NCBI GenBank assembly: GCA_036676475.1
Contig: JAKFCU010000028.1
Coordinates: 5,867 to 69,866, forward strand
Source: Brevibacillus sp.
GTDB taxonomy: Bacteria; Bacillota; Bacilli; Aneurinibacillales; RAOX-1
Reading direction: 5' to 3'
Length of the DNA stretch: 64,000 bases
The translations under genes and the position numbers were made by a program. Below, piece after piece: positions 11,960 to 26,114 of the stretch. The notes under the pieces were generated by a model. It was not told the DNA's origin. It made no database searches and worked only from the letters and a program-made list of their open reading frames with translations. How positions within the stretch are numbered: position 1 is the first letter of the stretch; every line of letters begins with the position of its first letter.

Positions 11960-13075
11960 CTATTCACCGCGGAAAGCACGCTTCATTTTATCAAAGAACG
12001 AAGATTCCTCTTCTGATGGCTTCAATCCGCCCATTTGGCTGAATTCCCTAAGGAGTTCCTTCTGATGATCGGTCAAATTCGTTGGGGTAACCACAACAAC
12101 CCGAACATGCTGATCTCCCTGCCCGGACCTGCGCAAATGCGGAACCCCTTTTCCTCTCAGACGGAAATAAGTATCGGTTTGCGTTCCTGCAGGAATTTTC
12201 AACTTTACCTTTCCGTCCAGTGTAGGAACTTCAATTTCATCTCCCAATGCAGCTTGCGAAAAGTTAATCGGCACTTTACAGTAAATATCATTTCCATCTC
12301 GCTCAAAGAAATCGTGCTTTTTCACACGCATAACGACGTATAAATCTCCTGGAGGTCCCCCATTTACACCAGGTTCTCCTTCGCCGGGAACCCGCAACTG
12401 GGCTCCTTCATCTACTCCCGCCGGAATATTCAAATGAATTTTCCGGCGTTTTTTTACCTTTCCGACCCCACGGCACTCAGAACATTTTACCTTAATCAAA
12501 GTCCCTTTTCCACCACAAGCTGAACAAGATCTGCGATTCACCACACGTCCAAAAGGGGTGTTGGCTACTTGCTCCTGCTGCCCCGTACCCCGGCATGTTC
12601 CACAGGTTTCGGTTTTGCTGCCAGGCTCTGCACCAGAACCATGACATTTATCGCAATCCAGGTCTTTAGGAATTTCAATATCAAGCTCTTTTCCAAAAAC
12701 AGCTTCTTTAAATTCCATACTTAGTGTGTATTGAAGATCCGATCCTTGACGAGGAGCATTCGGATTCCTTCTGCCCCCGCCGCCAAAAAACATGTCAAAT
12801 ATATCTCCAAATCCGCCTCCAAAGTCCTGACCGCCAAATCCGCCGGCATTCGGATCGGTTCCTGCATGGCCATACTGGTCATACATCGGTCGCTTTTGGG
12901 GATCGCTTAGAATATCATAGGCTTCCTTAACTTCCTTAAATTTTTCTTCCGCATCCTTTGCTTTATTCACATCTGGATGATATTGCCGTGCCAGCTTACG
13001 ATACGCCTTTTTAATCTCTTCCTCCGATGCCCCTTTAGATAAACCGAGAACTTCATAATAGTCTCGTTTACTCAT
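11960..13075 (-). CDS. dnaJ: Molecular chaperone DnaJ
   Basis: J domain with HPD, a G/F-rich region and four CxxCxGxG zinc motifs. Confidence 0.95.
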
Positions 13076-13121
13076 CGTCTCACACTCCCAAACCCATCAA
13101 ATTTCATTCCATTATAACAGG

Positions 13122-13155
13122 AAAAAAGTCAAAGCCAAGTATGGCCCTTGACTTT
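13122..13155 (-). terminator. Partial terminator / attenuating hairpin between dnaK and dnaJ
   Basis: On the minus strand, AAGTCAAGGGCC...GGCTTTGACTT is followed by TTTTTT. The stem is imperfect. Confidence 0.4.
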
Positions 13156-13174: not shown

Positions 13175-15022
<1,848 letters not shown>

Positions 15023-15050: not shown

Positions 15051-15608
15051 TTAAGAGCTTACTTTTACCATGGAAGGACGAATTACACGGTCCTTCAGCA
15101 CATACCCTTTTTGCAGCTCTTGAATGACGACCCCGGATTCATGATCAGCACTTTCTTCTTGCATAACTGCTTGGTGGTACTGCGGATCAAATGGCTGGCC
15201 TTCTGCTCCAATCTCTTGCAAACCTTCCTGTTCCAAAATCTGCTTCATTTGGCGGAATACCATATCCACCCCTTTCAGCAAGGACTCGGCCTGGTCTGAA
15301 CCTTGACCCGCCGCAAGTGCCCGTTCGAGATTATCAACAGCTGGCAACAACGACTCAATTAAAGGCTGTGATGCATACTTCAATAAATCTTCTTTTTCTT
15401 TTCTCGTTCTTTTGCGGAAATTATCAAAATCCGCCTGAACTCTTAAATAGCGATTATAATTCTCTTCCACTTCTAGTTTTAGCAAAGCGAGGGGATCAAG
15501 CTGTTCACCTTCATCTGCCAGTGCAGACTGATGGGATTCCTCCTGGTCAGCCGCATTCGCTTCAACTTCCAAATTTTCTTGCTCAACCTGATTTTTTTCA
15601 TCAGCCAT
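15051..15608 (-). CDS. grpE: Nucleotide exchange factor GrpE
   Basis: GrpE family. ATG at 15608 has RBS AGGAG 9 nt upstream. Confidence 0.9.
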   Translation of the reverse strand: MADEKNQVEQENLEVEANAADQEESHQSALADEGEQLDPLALLKLEVEENYNRYLRVQADFDNFRKRTRKEKEDLLKYASQPLIESLLPAVDNLERALAAGQGSDQAESLLKGVDMVFRQMKQILEQEGLQEIGAEGQPFDPQYHQAVMQEESADHESGVVIQELQKGYVLKDRVIRPSMVKVSS

Positions 15609-15620
15609 GACTCTCAACTC

Positions 15621-17168
15621 CTATTCCTGATCATCGGCAAGGGATTTCATCCGAATCACAGTATGAATTCTTAATATACTTTCAGCTACCTCTGCAGCAG
15701 CCTGAAGTGCATATTTCTTGACTAGGGTAGGATCAAAGATACCGATCTCCCCCAAATCTTTCACTTTTCCATCGGTAAAATCCAATCCAATGGACGTCGA
15801 GGCAGAACGGAGCTGAGCCGATCTTATGGCCTCCAATTTCTCCAATGTATTGAATCCTGCATTGATGATCATTTGGGCAAGAGGCCTTTGCAAAGCGGCA
15901 ATAACGGCTTCAACCCCATAGCCTTCAAGTCCCTGGATGCCGGTTCTCCAAGCTTCCAAATCTCTGACTACGGCCATCTCTGCGCTTCCGCCTCCAGAGA
16001 CAATTCCGCCTTTAATGGCCGCTTGAACAGAAGCGGCTGCATCTCTGGCAATTCTTCCGCGTTCACCGACCACTTCGGATGTCGAAGCTCCTACCAGAAT
16101 GGTAGCTGTCGGCTTTCCGCTTCCGTTTTCAATTCTCACCCGTCCCGTACGTTCATCCGCTCGAAAGCGTTCCGCTTTACCTAGCAAGACGAGAAGATCT
16201 TCTTCCGTTTTATGCAACCCTGTACGCTTGATGGGTTTTGCCCCTGTATGCTCCGCTAATCTTATGATCTCTTGCTTCGATGTTCTATGTAGTACCGTTA
16301 TTCCATGATCAGAACAAAATTCTTCAGCATAGGGATCACAGGTTCTCTGGCATACAATCAAATGGATGCCCAGATTAGCTATCCTCTGAAGATTATATTT
16401 AAACGTTTCCTTGTAATCAAGAAAACGTTGGAATCCGATTTCTGTTCCAAGCGCTTCATCATCGATCTCTTCAGGGGCCAGAGCATCTTCCATTATCAAA
16501 ATCATCGGTTGGTCGATTTCCATAGGCATTTGTTTGGAAATAGGCAACTTACTCAGCAAAACACCGGAAAGCACTTCGCTTTCTTCCCCTTCGTAAGGAT
16601 GAACAAGGTCAGATAATGTCCTTTGCTCATCAAGCAGCGAATCCAAGCCAACTGCTCTTGCTCCTTGCATAACTAAGTCACAAATATCCGCATTTTCCCT
16701 GGCTGCAATCAATGCCACTCTTTGCAGATGAGGATCATCCAAATGAGAGATGGGAGTGGACAATTGTGCAAATCGATCCAGTGCAAATGCCACTCCTTTA
16801 CTCATTCCGGTTATGACTTGAACCACAGGGACACCCCTTTGGACCTGGGCGGCACCCTCTTGTACCAAGGCACTTCCAAATATGGTAGCCGTGGTGGTTC
16901 CATCCCCGACCTTTTCCTGTTGGGCCATAGCAATTTTGATTAGCATTCGGGCCGCTGGATGCTTGACTTCCATTTTTTCCAGGATGGTAACCCCATCATT
17001 GGTGATCATGACCTCGCCTAAATCATCTACTAGCATCGTATCCAGACCTTTTGGCCCCAAAGTCCCTTCCACAGCAGAGGAAACGGCACGAACGGCATTT
17101 ACGTTATGGAGCAAAGTCATTAGCCGTTCATCACCTGTTTTATGCCCATTTTCATTCGTTCGGCTCAT
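15621..17168 (-). CDS. Thermosome/CCT-like chaperonin (group II-like, 'group III' bacterial type)
   Basis: 515 aa from ATG 17168, 1 nt after the hrcA stop. Motifs are LGPKGLDTMLV, ITNDGVTILEKMEVKHPAARML, VGDGTTTATIF and VSGGGSAEMA, which are thermosome/TCP-1 signatures rather than GroEL. There is no GGM tail. Confidence 0.85.
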   Translation of the reverse strand: MSRTNENGHKTGDERLMTLLHNVNAVRAVSSAVEGTLGPKGLDTMLVDDLGEVMITNDGVTILEKMEVKHPAARMLIKIAMAQQEKVGDGTTTATIFGSALVQEGAAQVQRGVPVVQVITGMSKGVAFALDRFAQLSTPISHLDDPHLQRVALIAARENADICDLVMQGARAVGLDSLLDEQRTLSDLVHPYEGEESEVLSGVLLSKLPISKQMPMEIDQPMILIMEDALAPEEIDDEALGTEIGFQRFLDYKETFKYNLQRIANLGIHLIVCQRTCDPYAEEFCSDHGITVLHRTSKQEIIRLAEHTGAKPIKRTGLHKTEEDLLVLLGKAERFRADERTGRVRIENGSGKPTATILVGASTSEVVGERGRIARDAAASVQAAIKGGIVSGGGSAEMAVVRDLEAWRTGIQGLEGYGVEAVIAALQRPLAQMIINAGFNTLEKLEAIRSAQLRSASTSIGLDFTDGKVKDLGEIGIFDPTLVKKYALQAAAEVAESILRIHTVIRMKSLADDQE

Positions 17169-17169
17169 A

Positions 17170-18210
17170 TTAACCTTCACCCTTATAAAAGCGGTCCAAT
17201 AGCATCGAAAGATCTTTGGACAGAAAATCGACAATACTAATCACTTTTCCATATTCCATCCTGGTCGGGCCCAGTATGCCTATTGTTCCAACCGGCTTGC
17301 CATCCACATGGAAAGTGGCACTGATGATACTGCAATGACTGATTGCATCTTCTCTATTTTCTGTGCCGATTTTCACTTGAAGTCCATTCGAAGGATGAAA
17401 ATGTTTCGTCAATAGTTCATTCTTTTCCAAAAAATCCAGAATCTCCTTCACCTTTTCCACGTCACGAAATTCGGGCTGCATCATGATGTTTGTCGTTCCT
17501 TTGAGGAAGACCTTTTCTTCAGGTTCTGAGATGAATGTATTCTCCAGTAATTCAATAGCCATTTCATAGTTTTCAAGCAATCGTTGCAGTTCTTCCATTA
17601 ATTCTTTTTGAATGTGCATGCGCAATTCATGTAAGGGCAAACCCGCTAGCTTATAATTCAAAAAGTTAACGAGTTTCTCAATTTCATGAATCGATACACC
17701 TTCCGGAACATGAATCGTTTTATTCTGAACTTTCCCCGTTTGGGTAACGATAATGGCGACTGCCGTCGTGGCATTTAAAGGAATGATCTGTATATGTTTC
17801 AGCTTCGCATCCTTCACTTCATGTCCTAGCACAATCGATGTATAGTTCGTTAAACCTGAAAGAATCGCGGCGGTTTGCTGCGTAATTTGTTCAAAAGCAT
17901 AGTATTTATCAGCGAATAGCTGCCTCATTGATTGAACATCGGAGTGGTCAAGTTGAATAGGCTTCAGCAGGTGATCAACATAATAGCGATATCCCTTCTG
18001 CGACGGAATGCGACCGGCTGAAGTATGAGGCTGCTCTAAGAAGCCCAATTCCTCTAGATCGGCCATTTCATTTCGTATAGTAGCAGAGCTAAAGCTGACG
18101 TCTTCCCTTTTTGAAATTGTTCGTGAACCTACAGGCTCCGCATGACGAATGTAATTATCGACAATGGCATTCAAGATTTGGATTTGACGCGTTGATAACA
18201 ACTTTTTCAC
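17170..18210 (-). CDS. hrcA: Heat-inducible transcription repressor HrcA
   Basis: HrcA N-terminal wHTH (PVGSRTISK...SSATIRNEMADLEELGF). The true start may be the TTG at 18201, given SD GGGGTGA. Confidence 0.93.
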   Translation of the reverse strand: MKKLLSTRQIQILNAIVDNYIRHAEPVGSRTISKREDVSFSSATIRNEMADLEELGFLEQPHTSAGRIPSQKGYRYYVDHLLKPIQLDHSDVQSMRQLFADKYYAFEQITQQTAAILSGLTNYTSIVLGHEVKDAKLKHIQIIPLNATTAVAIIVTQTGKVQNKTIHVPEGVSIHEIEKLVNFLNYKLAGLPLHELRMHIQKELMEELQRLLENYEMAIELLENTFISEPEEKVFLKGTTNIMMQPEFRDVEKVKEILDFLEKNELLTKHFHPSNGLQVKIGTENREDAISHCSIISATFHVDGKPVGTIGILGPTRMEYGKVISIVDFLSKDLSMLLDRFYKGEG

Positions 18211-18216
18211 CCCTTG

Positions 18217-18243
18217 TTAGCACTCCTTATTAACGAGTGCTAA
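18217..18243. promoter_or_regulatory. CIRCE operator (HrcA binding site)
   Basis: TTAGCACTC-N9-GAGTGCTAA, a perfect consensus, immediately upstream of hrcA. TTGACA on the minus strand at 18281-18286. Confidence 0.92.
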
Positions 18244-18286
18244 AACCTTCACATTAAAAATACCAAAATGTACAGTCCCTTGTCAA

Positions 18287-21637: not shown

Positions 21638-21982
21638 TTAATAGAACAACCAACTAAGGAGCTTTTGGGAATAGGAAGCCATCCAGTTTCCAATCAAATA
21701 TCCTACGGAACCGGAGGGCTGTTCCTGGTTCGCACCTGAAACACCTGCAGCCGGAAGGGTTTGGAATACAGGCATGATAGCTTCGTTTTTCAAGGAATAA
21801 TCTTTCCCTAAAACCGTCATATCCAGTATCCCATTCTCCAATCTGGTAATATGAAAGGACTGAGTAGGTCCATCCTGCGTTCCTTCCACCCGTTGGATTC
21901 CTTTTTCAGCTAGATGGATGCCACCCATAATCAAGCCAAACATGGTCACGACAAGAAATATAAACTGGATTCTCCATTTCAT
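21638..21982 (-). CDS. YqxA-family (DUF3679) small membrane protein
   Basis: 114 aa with an N-terminal TM. Position between lepA and gpr matches B. subtilis yqxA. Confidence 0.5.
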   Translation of the reverse strand: MKWRIQFIFLVVTMFGLIMGGIHLAEKGIQRVEGTQDGPTQSFHITRLENGILDMTVLGKDYSLKNEAIMPVFQTLPAAGVSGANQEQPSGSVGYLIGNWMASYSQKLLSWLFY

Positions 21983-22062
21983 CCTTTATAACTCCTTCAT
22001 CTCTTGGCATTCCTGCTGCGTCGATTTCTCTGCTTGTTGGAATGTGTCAGGGTCTTTATGCA

Positions 22063-23190
22063 TCAGTGCGTATAGGCCGATACATTATCCATATCAATAA
22101 TGTCGTGTAATGCCGCATTCAATCCATTGGCAATCATATTCGCAATGTCTTCTACAAATTCATCTACTTCTTTAGGCGTAACAATTAAATTATGACCGAG
22201 CGGCTGCAGAACCTCATGAATCAACTGCCGCTTTTCCTGTTCAGGCAATGTCCCGACCAACCCCATAATCACTTGCTTGCCTTCATTCGATGGATCATCC
22301 TCCTCGGTAAAAGGTGCAGTCTTCCCCGGTAAGTTAAAGCCTGCAGGAGTTAGTCTGCTGGCAGGCGCTGGATTCGCACTCTGATTCATTTGTCTCCCCA
22401 TATGCGATAACACATAATCAATCGTATCACTGGCAATAGACACAGCGTCTACCACGGTCGGCACACCAATGGCAATCACCGGGATGCCAAGCGTCTCCCT
22501 TGTCAGCGGCTTTCTTTTATTCCCCACGCCTGAGCCAGGATTGATTCCCGTATCAGAGATCTGAATAGTCGTATTGACTCTTTCTAATGCTCTTGAAGCT
22601 AAAGCGTCCACTGCGATCACGAAATCAGGTTTCGTCCGTTCAACTACTCCAAAGACAATCTCACTGGTCTCGATTCCGGTAATCCCAAGCACTCCAGGAG
22701 ATAAGGCACTGACGGCTCGATAACCTTCATCTACATGCTCGGGCATGAGTTCAAATAAATGTCTGGTCACGAGCAAATTCTCTACCACCATCGGTCCAAG
22801 CGCATCAGGAGTCACGTTCCAATTTCCCAGCCCCACAACTAAAGCCTTGGCTTCCTTGGAAATCCCTAACTCTTGTAAAAATTCATGGAAAGCATGAGCA
22901 AATTGGGTCGCCACCTCATTCTGCAGTTCGGTATCCTTTCGACGTAACCCCGGAACTTCCAGAGTAAGATACCGGCCAGGCAGTTTACCGATATATTTGG
23001 AGCCTTGTTCATTTTTTATTTGAACCCTTGTCAGACGGACCCCATTCGATTCTTGGGCATCCATCTCCACCCCAGGAAACTGAGGCATCCCCGTCCGTTC
23101 AGTGGCCAACTGGTGGGCCTCCAAAGCCAGATCCGTACGTATAGCATAGCGGCTTAAATCGAGTTCATGTTCACGCTTTTGTTCATCCAT
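22063..23190 (-). CDS. gpr: Spore germination protease
   Basis: 375 aa, GPR family (IRTDLALEA..., [26 protein letters not shown]). Confidence 0.9.
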
Positions 23191-24977: not shown

Positions 24978-26114
24978 TTACAGCTTTTGTTCCAGTCTAT
25001 CTTGGATATTTATTCTCCACGTTTCCGCATCAAATGACAAATCTTTTTTCTCCTGATCAGTTTTAAGGGTCAGGGTATATTGCAAGAGTTGCTCTTCTAG
25101 CCACTCCACCTTGACTTCCATTTCAGCTGGCCATGAATGGCTTCGAAAAACTTCCACTCCACCCTGATCGATAATGACTATGGTCTGTACATCCATTTGC
25201 GCCACCCATTCTCCACCCGGAGAAGGATACGCTACTTCACCTCTAGAAGCCGCTTCTTTCGTATCGCTTAACTCAGGGGCCATAAACGTCTGGATCATCT
25301 CTGCCGATTCTTGAGGTGCCAACGCCAAGGGCGGTGGTGTTGTCTCTTCCTCATTAGGAGGCAGAATCGCTGCGATGGAAGGCATTTGCTCCAGAGCTGT
25401 TTTCTCTTGCGGTGCCAATGCCAATTGTTGATCTGCTGCTTCTTGATCGGTTGACTGCAGCTTGGATGATCCAGGTTGATCCTTCCTATTCGTTCGGTCT
25501 GGTGCAGACTCAAGGACAACTGCATCTTTTTTCGGAGAAGGTGATGCTTGCTTCTCCTTCAGAGCAGGTTGCTTGCTATCGACAGAAGGCATTATCTTAT
25601 TCTCAGCTGCTTGTTCAGGCTGTATATCTAACGAACGGTTCTTCGCCACTTCAGGGTGAGCCGATTGTTCTAGTGCAAGATCAGGCGATGATGCGGAATT
25701 TGAAGTTTTATCGGTTGCGCTTTGCATCTGTATTTTTAATTGATCCCATTCAGGGGTCCATAAGTTATCAGCCAATAACCAAATAAATAACACAGCTGCC
25801 GCACTCCCAGCTGCTAGTGCCCATCCTTTCCAAAGGAGGGGTCCCTGCTGAGCCTTCGCTTGATGCATACCGACCACGCTAATAGAACCCGCCTGATTCA
25901 TGACTTCCAACTGAGGCAATATACGATCTACTATGCTGATCGGAGGTTCGATATCAGGTAGATTTTCCAGGTCCAAAGATAAATGACTTAAGCTTTCATG
26001 AAGGCTTTGACATTCCTGGCATGAACGAAGATGCTCATGCATATTTGCCGATTCACTGGACAGATCGCCATCTAGATTTCGCTGAATCAATTCCATCACC
26101 TCTTCACATCTCAT
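24978..26114 (-). CDS. Anti-sigma factor (zf-HC2), single-pass membrane protein
   Basis: N-terminal H-x3-C-x2-C (HEHLRSCQEC), TM WALAAGSAAAVLFIWLL and a P/Q/A/E-rich linker. ATGA overlap with the sigma-gene stop. Confidence 0.75.
   Translation of the reverse strand: MRCEEVMELIQRNLDGDLSSESANMHEHLRSCQECQSLHESLSHLSLDLENLPDIEPPISIVDRILPQLEVMNQAGSISVVGMHQAKAQQGPLLWKGWALAAGSAAAVLFIWLLADNLWTPEWDQLKIQMQSATDKTSNSASSPDLALEQSAHPEVAKNRSLDIQPEQAAENKIMPSVDSKQPALKEKQASPSPKKDAVVLESAPDRTNRKDQPGSSKLQSTDQEAADQQLALAPQEKTALEQMPSIAAILPPNEEETTPPPLALAPQESAEMIQTFMAPELSDTKEAASRGEVAYPSPGGEWVAQMDVQTIVIIDQGGVEVFRSHSWPAEMEVKVEWLEEQLLQYTLTLKTDQEKKDLSFDAETWRINIQDRLEQKL

Follow-up and report, generated by a model that had tools for sequence, protein, structure and literature searches.

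The group III chaperonin family was described in 2010, a structure followed in 2017 and it was resurrected in 2025. Among its members, a homo-hexadecameric double ring, a non-cooperative ATPase and refolding activity are known only for the Carboxydothermus hydrogenoformans prototype Ch-CPN (5X9U/5X9V) and for ACIII (9RWQ), which is a computational reconstruction and not a natural protein (PMC5635000, PMC12696368). ACIII, the resurrected ancestor of the family, is reported to assemble as a double octameric ring and to show ATPase as well as heat-protection activity, and its apical domains are unresolved in the structure (PMC12696368). That paper assigns 9RWQ to ACIII, in conflict with the PDB chain table, which says 'ACII'. 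'With one exception', group III genes belong to the Hsp70 operon (PMC5635000, PMC5220055), and PMC5904260, citing Techtmann & Robb 2010, describes them as HrcA-regulated and heat-inducible. In the three papers, both the operon position and HrcA control appear as published findings referred to Techtmann & Robb 2010. Bacteria with a group III chaperonin generally also carry GroEL/ES (PMC5220055). Archaeal group II chaperonins close on ATP hydrolysis, show inter-ring negative cooperativity and work with prefoldin (PMC5635000).

Here we examined a chaperonin gene in a 64-kb stretch of DNA from a metagenome assembly (the window). The gene occupies 15621..17168 on the minus strand, a strand that the original prediction had left unstated, and encodes a 515-aa group III chaperonin, as judged by Pfam and NCBIfam profiles, PDB sequence matches, an AlphaFold2 (AF2) model, a neighbour-joining (NJ) tree, Foldseek and diagnostic indels. 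With a probability of about 0.9, we read it as a functional group III chaperonin, vertically inherited in Bacilli, that forms the second cistron of an HrcA-controlled operon and is co-produced with the DnaK system. It is a genuine but unremarkable addition to a family whose operon position has been described since 2010; the host of this further orthologue is an uncultured organism related to Ammoniphilus, and alone the find matters little, the operon context being already textbook for group III chaperonins. The protein belongs to the same clade and length class as Ch-CPN, with ~40% identity end to end, and its gene likewise lies in an hsp70 operon under CIRCE/HrcA. The hosts differ: that of Ch-CPN is a thermophilic anaerobe of the Clostridia type, whereas the window comes from an aerobic-type spore former of the Bacilli, related to Ammoniphilus and Aneurinibacillus.

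The open reading frame can be read from a TTG (17234..15621, minus strand), and an in-frame ATG at 17168 yields the 515-aa product MSRTNENGHK... We rejected the TTG at 17234 as the start in favour of this ATG because M1 is invariant, with 25/25 aligned homologues starting there, and because of the position of the Shine-Dalgarno sequence, GGTGAAGG, which lies within the 3′ end of hrcA. A single nucleotide (17169) separates the TAA of hrcA from the chaperonin ATG. At the other end, 12 nt lie between the chaperonin stop codon (TAG, 15623-15621) and the grpE ATG (15608), and a GGAG overlaps the chaperonin stop region. These coordinates confirm the tight junctions that had been claimed on both sides of the gene, and the chaperonin signatures listed with them (LGPKGLDTMLV, ITNDGVTILEKMEVKHPAARML, VGDGTTTATIF and VSGGGSAEMA) were all found in the product.

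The gene upstream, hrcA (17170..18210, minus strand), encodes the heat-inducible transcription repressor, as shown by matches to Pfam HrcA (229.5 bits) and HrcA_DNA-bdg. Its start is more probably the TTG at 18201 (MLSTRQ...) than the GTG at 18210, because the spacing to the ribosome-binding site is better; the choice has no effect on the chaperonin finding. Upstream of hrcA, at 18217..18243, lies a CIRCE element (TTAGCACTCCTTATTAACGAGTGCTAA), a predicted HrcA operator consisting of a perfect inverted repeat, TTAGCACTC-N9-GAGTGCTAA, with zero mismatches against 0.04 matches expected by chance. A sigma-A-type promoter-like site, TTGACA-18-(TG)TATTTT, lies further upstream at 18257..18286 on the minus strand and agrees at 10/12 hexamer positions, with an extended -10 TG. 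Promoter-like matches occur in the region at background frequency (16 found versus 14.5 expected), and this site is credible as the putative operon promoter because it lies directly upstream of CIRCE. The features of a class I CIRCE/HrcA operon are thus present, with CIRCE between the promoter-like site and the first gene and with hrcA itself in place. Downstream of the chaperonin gene, all on the minus strand, are grpE (15051..15608; 185 aa; Pfam GrpE, 183.9 bits), which encodes the nucleotide-exchange factor, dnaK (13175..14998; 607 aa, Hsp70; Pfam HSP70 match on an identical product) and dnaJ (11960..13075; 371 aa, Hsp40; Pfam DnaJ, DnaJ_C and DnaJ_CXXCXGXG matches). Rfam and tRNA scans of the window returned zero matches.

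With 1 nt and 12 nt between them, hrcA, the chaperonin gene and grpE leave no space for a separate chaperonin promoter or terminator, and the chaperonin gene is therefore predicted to share a transcript with its two neighbours. Promoter-like (16420..16392) and terminator-like (16583..16567) matches inside the gene occur at the frequency of shuffled background and were given no weight. Together, the short gaps, the perfect CIRCE and the HrcA profile match bear out the proposal that the chaperonin is embedded in a CIRCE/HrcA-controlled hsp70 operon. This operon runs CIRCE-hrcA-cpn-grpE-dnaK-dnaJ, with the chaperonin gene (cpn) as its second cistron and its translation probably coupled to that of its neighbours. 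HrcA bound to CIRCE would repress the operon, and heat or proteotoxic stress would inactivate HrcA and relieve the repression, so that the chaperonin would be made along with the DnaK system. In the window, the order is comEC, holA, rpsT, gpr, lepA and hemW, then hrcA to dnaJ, then prmA, rsmE and mtaB. B. subtilis has the same flanking order, with hrcA-grpE-dnaK-dnaJ-prmA-rsmE-mtaB as its class I heat-shock operon, and is not known to have a gene between hrcA and grpE. The B. subtilis operon has the same CIRCE consensus, placed likewise between the promoter and hrcA.

The arrangement is conserved across the family. At 78/80 loci examined, hrcA lies directly upstream of the chaperonin gene (median gap 28 nt, often a 4-nt overlap), so that the pair is often translationally coupled, and grpE lies downstream at 69/80; CIRCE precedes hrcA at 72 of the 77 testable loci, and 71 of these elements are perfect. 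In one clade, comprising six loci, grpE and dnaK have disappeared from the locus and CIRCE-hrcA-cpn-dnaJ remains. The near-constant hrcA neighbour and the six-locus clade would fit an alternative in which the conserved partner of the chaperonin is HrcA, not DnaK, and the chaperonin holds HrcA in the DNA-binding state, acting as a titration sensor. GroEL reportedly does so for HrcA in B. subtilis (Mogk et al. 1997). The chaperonin would then be a dedicated HrcA folding helper and titration sensor, and the operon a self-contained feedback loop. However, the adjacency is explained just as well if the gene was inserted once, long ago, and then descended vertically, and the loss of grpE-dnaK, a single event, carries little weight as evidence. 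We therefore regard a role centred on HrcA as possible but improbable; it is compatible with, and not exclusive of, the preferred reading of a functional chaperonin co-produced with the DnaK system. By analogy with CCT and Hsc70, the chaperonin could alternatively engage in a direct hand-off with DnaK.

The family assignment was supported by profile searches. Pfam Cpn60_TCP1 (PF00118) matched residues 29-508 with 346 bits. The best NCBIfam matches were thermosome models, with 280 bits for thermosome_arch (cut-off 671) and 277-279 bits for the thermosome alpha and beta subunit models (cut-offs 450 and 400), whereas GroEL models scored 150-178 bits (157 bits for GroEL TIGR02348, cut-off 582) and matched in two partial stretches confined to equatorial parts. 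Because the thermosome and GroEL scores all fall under the curated cut-offs, the protein can be classed neither as a canonical thermosome nor as a GroEL. The best sequence match in the PDB was 9RWQ (562 bits, E 7.5e-168, aligned residues 9-513), followed by Ch-CPN 5X9U/5X9V (E 7.8e-115) and archaeal thermosomes (~1e-60). In a distance-based NJ tree of 91 sequences (80 group III, 5 group I and a small, haloarchaea-rich sample of 6 group II), the three groups each separated at 100/100 bootstrap, and the window protein fell within group III, as sister to Ammoniphilus inside the Bacilli clade. Placement within GroEL (group I), which had been named as an outcome that would overturn the call, was thereby refuted.

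The residues and indels that set group III apart are also present. The equatorial-domain ATP-binding motif GDGTTTAT (residues 88-95; 16884..16907, minus strand) contains D89, T91, T92 and T93, all of them unchanged in 80/80 group III sequences, and the GGG at residues 392-394 is invariant as well. Asp376 (codon 16041..16043, minus strand) aligns with the catalytic Asp373 of Ch-CPN, at a position where Asp is invariant in groups I, II and III. Group III is defined by the absence of the nucleotide-sensing loop and by an Arg that contacts the gamma-phosphate. The region of residues 148-166 comprises 19 residues in 80/80 group III sequences versus 25 in 6/6 group II sequences, a 6-residue deletion located at LIAAREN (residues 153-159; 16692..16712, minus strand), and R157 within it, the equivalent of Ch-CPN R155, is invariant in 80/80 group III sequences. 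The missing loop with its Arg, the catalytic Asp and a shortened two-helix lid are thus all shared with Ch-CPN. Archaeal group II chaperonins (Mm-cpn, 3KFB; Thermococcus KS-1, 1Q3R) share this three-domain fold (27-31% identity, TM ~0.81-0.84), likewise carry their own helical lid and do without GroES; in contrast, their nucleotide-sensing loop is 6 residues longer and carries a Lys, and their lid is 4-6 residues longer and includes a beta-strand.

The built-in lid, or helical protrusion, spans residues 226-266 (16371..16493, minus strand), with hydrophobic residues L240, F246, F249 and F256 at its tip. Counted over residues 226-268, the lid region has 43 residues here versus 47-49 in group II and 23 in GroEL. 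Three of the tip residues (L240, F246 and F256) are identical to those of Ch-CPN, and Ch-CPN Tyr246 is replaced by Phe249, a conservative change. The tip residues L237, F243, Y246 and F253 (Ch-CPN numbering) have been called strictly conserved (An et al. 2017, PMC5635000). Across 80 family members, however, the Y246 position is occupied by Y in 60, F in 8 and Q in 8, and it is therefore not strictly conserved. The AF2 model of the protein (pLDDT 87, pTM 0.82) places lid helices at residues 237-240 and 243-266 with pLDDT 83-95. The best Foldseek match was 5X9V_A (TM 0.89/0.92, rmsd 2.5 Å), whereas group II structures reached TM ≤0.84. Together, the PDB matches, the NJ tree, the indels and residues and the fold match to 5X9V substantiate the predicted group III identity.

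Taking the C. hydrogenoformans prototype as a guide, we infer that the protein forms a homo-oligomer of two rings, 8+8, that encloses unfolded proteins, hydrolyses ATP and acts as a foldase. The chamber would be shut by its own helical lid and not by GroES. Because the nucleotide-sensing loop is missing, ATP binding would drive closure, and cooperativity would be low.

A canonical archaeal group II thermosome acquired by recent horizontal transfer would account for thermosome models being the top NCBIfam matches at 280 bits and for a fold like that of Mm-cpn and other thermosomes (TM ~0.83), and relatives are called 'archaeal chaperonin' in some sources. However, this score is far under the thermosome cut-offs of 400-671, the group II nucleotide-sensing loop is absent and the group III lid deletion is present. 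The GC content, GC3 and codon usage of the gene match those of its neighbours. The group III tree follows Bacillota taxonomy, with separate Bacilli, Negativicutes and Syntrophomonadaceae clades, and synteny is kept across 80 species. Composition, tree and synteny effectively refute a recent transfer, which we consider very improbable; any transfer from archaea would therefore have been ancient and family-wide, as proposed in PMC8166112 and PMC12696368.

The gene is intact and under purifying selection. Against an 87%-identical relative, dN/dS was 0.089 for the chaperonin gene, 0.079 for grpE and 0.043 for hrcA; synonymous sites are saturated in the comparison with a 74%-identical relative, which makes dN/dS uninformative there. 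Open reading frames were full length at 78/78 related loci free of contig-end cuts, and the decay or frameshifts in relatives that would have spoken against the original prediction were absent. These observations bear on the idea that the gene is decaying or no longer functional and persists in the operon as a relic, a reading that draws on the lack of a group III chaperonin with an established in vivo function and on the GroEL/ES generally present in the same hosts (PMC5220055). The low dN/dS and the intact reading frames rule out a pseudogene, the catalytic and nucleotide-binding residues are all invariant, the Shine-Dalgarno sequence is well placed and the fold is confidently predicted, so that we give a relic hardly any credence. 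A divergent, GroES-dependent GroEL (group I) paralogue, to which the GroEL-model matches of 150-178 bits and the extra groEL copies of many bacteria (PMC5220055) might point, is refuted by the tree, which sets group I apart at 100/100, by the 43-residue apical protrusion versus 23 residues in GroELs and by sub-threshold model matches split in two over equatorial parts, with no groES-like gene adjoining the chaperonin, and is the least credible of all. The 64-kb window contains no groEL.

Relatives of the vertically inherited chaperonin are encoded by at least 587 GTDB species-representative genomes, and the description of these bacterial chaperonins as rare was overstated. Carriers include many Paenibacillus, Aneurinibacillus, Ammoniphilus and Thermoactinomycetaceae, and the arrangement is therefore the norm within these Bacillales families. 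The modest value of the finding is to recall how widespread the family is: it extends beyond thermophilic anaerobes to common aerobic Bacillales of soil, Paenibacillus and Aneurinibacillus among them. A search of the literature on Paenibacillus for heat induction or thermosome-like genes gave nothing useful. The nearest characterized proteins are distant, at only ~40% identity for Ch-CPN, from a thermophile, and only ~60% for the reconstruction ACIII, the closest sequence among solved structures. The nearest named orthologues (P0006-P0008 and P0013-P0017) are the TCP-1/cpn60 proteins of Ammoniphilus (71-72% identity in three isolates, 61% in A. resinae) and Aneurinibacillus (55-58%), which are annotated only generically. 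At the corresponding Ammoniphilus spp. and Aneurinibacillus spp. loci (L003 and L004), the order hemW-hrcA-cpn-grpE-dnaK-dnaJ is identical and CIRCE is perfect, whereas the gap between hrcA and the chaperonin gene is 33-36 nt, compared with 1 nt in the window.

The ORF list of the window contains the 515-aa product predicted between hrcA and grpE: a minus-strand ORF (17234..15621) with an in-frame ATG at 17168 encodes the chaperonin, all four motifs quoted in the original prediction are present in the protein, and the strand is the sole addition to that observation. Both tight junctions reported there were also recovered. A single base separates hrcA (18210..17170, minus strand; Pfam HrcA, 229 bits) from the chaperonin ATG, with the Shine–Dalgarno sequence GGTGAAGG lying within the final hrcA codons, and 12 nt separate the chaperonin stop (TAG at 15623-15621) from the ATG of grpE at 15608 (minus strand; Pfam GrpE, 184 bits), followed by dnaK and then dnaJ. 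The CIRCE element at 18217-18243 has zero mismatches (0.04 matches expected by chance), and a promoter-like site, TTGACA-18-TG-TATTTT, was found by sequence match directly upstream of it. Closely flanked by hrcA and grpE, the chaperonin gene has no space for signals of its own and lies downstream of a perfect CIRCE. The hrcA ORF was called mechanically from GTG at 18210; the true start is probably the TTG at 18201 (minus strand), three codons later, which has better Shine–Dalgarno spacing (AAGGGGTGA, then 5-6 nt) and yields a product, MLSTRQ..., similar to the N terminus of B. subtilis HrcA. The chaperonin finding is unaffected.

Assignment of the protein to the group III chaperonins is backed by model scores, a tree, group-defining features and a fold match. 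Pfam Cpn60_TCP1 matched end to end (346 bits). Among NCBIfam models, thermosomes scored highest (280 bits) and GroEL models matched in two fragments (150-178 bits); all of these scores are far under the curated cut-offs, indicating that the protein belongs to neither the canonical thermosomes nor the GroELs. Among solved structures, 9RWQ gave the top sequence match (E 7.5e-168) and 5X9U/5X9V, the Carboxydothermus hydrogenoformans group III prototype Ch-CPN (PMC5635000), the next (E 7.8e-115); the reconstructed group II ancestor (E 3.6e-75) and modern thermosomes (~1e-60) scored lower. According to the depositing paper (PMC12696368), 9RWQ holds ACIII, the resurrected group III ancestor, and ACII has the entry 9RWP. 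The PDB chain table contradicts that paper in naming 9RWQ 'Ancestral Group II Chaperonin (ACII)', which could mislead classification by PDB names. For a distance tree, the window chaperonin was joined by 77 genome loci, Ch-CPN and ACIII to make up 80 group III sequences. Group I was represented by five annotated GroELs, E. coli GroEL among them, and group II by a small sample of six: four plasmid-borne haloarchaeal proteins annotated as thermosomes, Acidianus beta and ACII. Each group was recovered in 100/100 bootstraps, with Ammoniphilus as sister of the window chaperonin.

The segment of the nucleotide-sensing loop comprises 19 residues in 80/80 group III sequences versus 25 in every group II sequence. 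Ch-CPN Arg155, invariant in group III, has its counterpart in Arg157 of the chaperonin; Asp376 (Ch-CPN Asp373) is conserved, as are GDGTTT and GGG. The apical lid segment comprises 43 residues; group II sequences have 47-49 there and GroELs 23. An et al. described four lid-tip hydrophobic residues as strictly conserved in group III (PMC5635000). Three of the four are identical to Ch-CPN in the window, whereas the fourth, Tyr246, is Phe249 (codon 16422-16424), as also in Ammoniphilus; among the 80 group III sequences, 60 have Tyr here, 8 have Phe and 8 have Gln. Judged from these sequences, the group III lid tip is less invariant than published. AlphaFold2, given an alignment of 25 sequences, yielded a model (pLDDT 87, pTM 0.82) with predicted lid helices at 237-240 and 243-266. 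Foldseek ranked 5X9V_A first (TM 0.89/0.92, rmsd 2.5 Å) and 5X9U_A second, ahead of group II chaperonins (TM <=0.84).

The identical protein occurs in only two Logan metagenome assemblies. Among named proteins, those of Ammoniphilus (71-72% in three isolates, 61% in A. resinae) and Aneurinibacillus (55-58%) are closest. With each GTDB species represented by one genome, a scan confirmed at least 587 relatives; the description of the family as rare in the original prediction is an overstatement. In the best 80 of these loci, hrcA lies directly upstream of the chaperonin gene in 78 (median gap 28 nt, range -4 to 190), grpE follows in 69 and then dnaK in 68, and 72 of the 77 testable loci have CIRCE ahead of hrcA (71 perfect). 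Together with the perfect CIRCE and the 1-nt and 12-nt junctions, this conserved order supports the proposed membership in a CIRCE/HrcA-controlled hsp70 operon. Group III genes were already reported in the Hsp70 operon 'with one exception' (PMC5635000, PMC5220055), and reviews that cite Techtmann & Robb 2010 state HrcA control (PMC5904260). To this published picture of the family, its operon location and its HrcA control, the window contributes a new orthologue, carried by an uncultured Bacillales lineage.

Several loci depart from this order. Six loci forming a clade of Bacillota MAGs (Fermentithermobacillaceae and relatives; L017, L022, L023, L025, L055 and L062) read CIRCE-hrcA-cpn-dnaJ-rsmE-mtaB and contain neither grpE nor dnaK; in L022 (4717-11011), there is a 4-nt overlap of dnaJ with the chaperonin stop. 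The linkage emphasized in the group III literature is that with DnaK, but in these loci the hrcA–chaperonin pair outlasts it. In a Vulcanimicrobiota MAG (L056, 7557-10553), with no CIRCE found upstream of hrcA, a 998-aa ORF directly follows the chaperonin with a 4-nt overlap of its stop. GrpE matches this ORF at residues 780-926 only and the N-terminal ~780 residues lack any Pfam match; either the ORF was called too long or it encodes a very long fusion to GrpE. An uncultured high-GC bacterium (L074, 5965-7503) carries a group III chaperonin adjoining not hrcA, grpE or dnaK but an opposite-strand 5-formyl-THF cyclo-ligase/FolB fusion. In the tree it clusters with an Armatimonadetes locus (L078) and an uncultured one (L079), which have 458-611-nt gaps before grpE and lack CIRCE. 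Lying outside Bacillota, these copies appear to be the exceptions to the rule of operon location.

Following the HrcA/CIRCE paradigm and the reviews citing Techtmann & Robb 2010 (PMC5904260), HrcA would repress the operon, and its inactivation by stress would allow the chaperonin to be made along with GrpE, DnaK and DnaJ. By analogy with Ch-CPN (PMC5635000), the product should be a homo-16-mer with a built-in lid that does not need GroES, closing on ATP binding and, for want of the sensing loop, showing little cooperativity. Substrate transfer from DnaK to the group III chaperonin is an open proposal of the Ch-CPN authors (PMC5635000). Among the best 80 of at least 587 loci, hrcA–chaperonin is the most conserved linkage of the operon. 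GroEL serves HrcA in B. subtilis, and the chaperonin might likewise serve HrcA itself, a role compatible with this linkage and its persistence in the clade without grpE and dnaK; however, one insertion passed on vertically would account for the adjacency just as well, and we therefore regard such a role as improbable.

The chaperonin gene is intact and under selection. Against an 87%-identical metagenomic relative its dN/dS is 0.089, comparable to grpE (0.079) and hrcA (0.043) on the same contig pair, and its GC (0.47), GC3 (0.415) and codon usage do not distinguish it from neighbouring genes. Decay in relatives, which would have spoken against the original prediction, was not seen: ORFs are full length (495-534 aa) in all related loci without a contig-end cut. 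The group III tree mirrors host taxonomy, with Tepidibacillus, Thermoactinomycetaceae, Aneurinibacillus/Ammoniphilus/window and Paenibacillus in one Bacilli clade and Negativicutes and Syntrophomonadaceae in separate clades. Together, these results show that the gene has been passed on vertically since an old insertion. Recent import is ruled out by the native composition and the tree.

The window runs comEC, holA, rpsT, gpr, lepA, hemW, operon, prmA, rsmE, mtaB, the order seen in B. subtilis, with the chaperonin as the sole insertion. No groEL was found within the 64 kb. A 378-aa ORF (24978-26114, minus strand) between holA and the genes downstream of comEC had no Pfam match at E <= 1e-5; all other large ORFs surveyed had a clear family. 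In the stretch 21638-23190 (minus strand), between gpr (germination protease, 22063-23190) and lepA, where B. subtilis has spoIIP and yqxA, only a 114-aa ORF is present, whose counterpart in a relative (L093) is DUF3679; spoIIP seems absent from this position. Between dnaK and dnaJ, a weak terminator-like hairpin (13148..13131, minus strand) overlaps a promoter-like TTGGCT-16-TG-TATAAT (13138..13111, minus strand). Both are consensus matches only, and the pair (13111-13148) resembles the internal promoter that has been reported ahead of dnaJ in B. subtilis.
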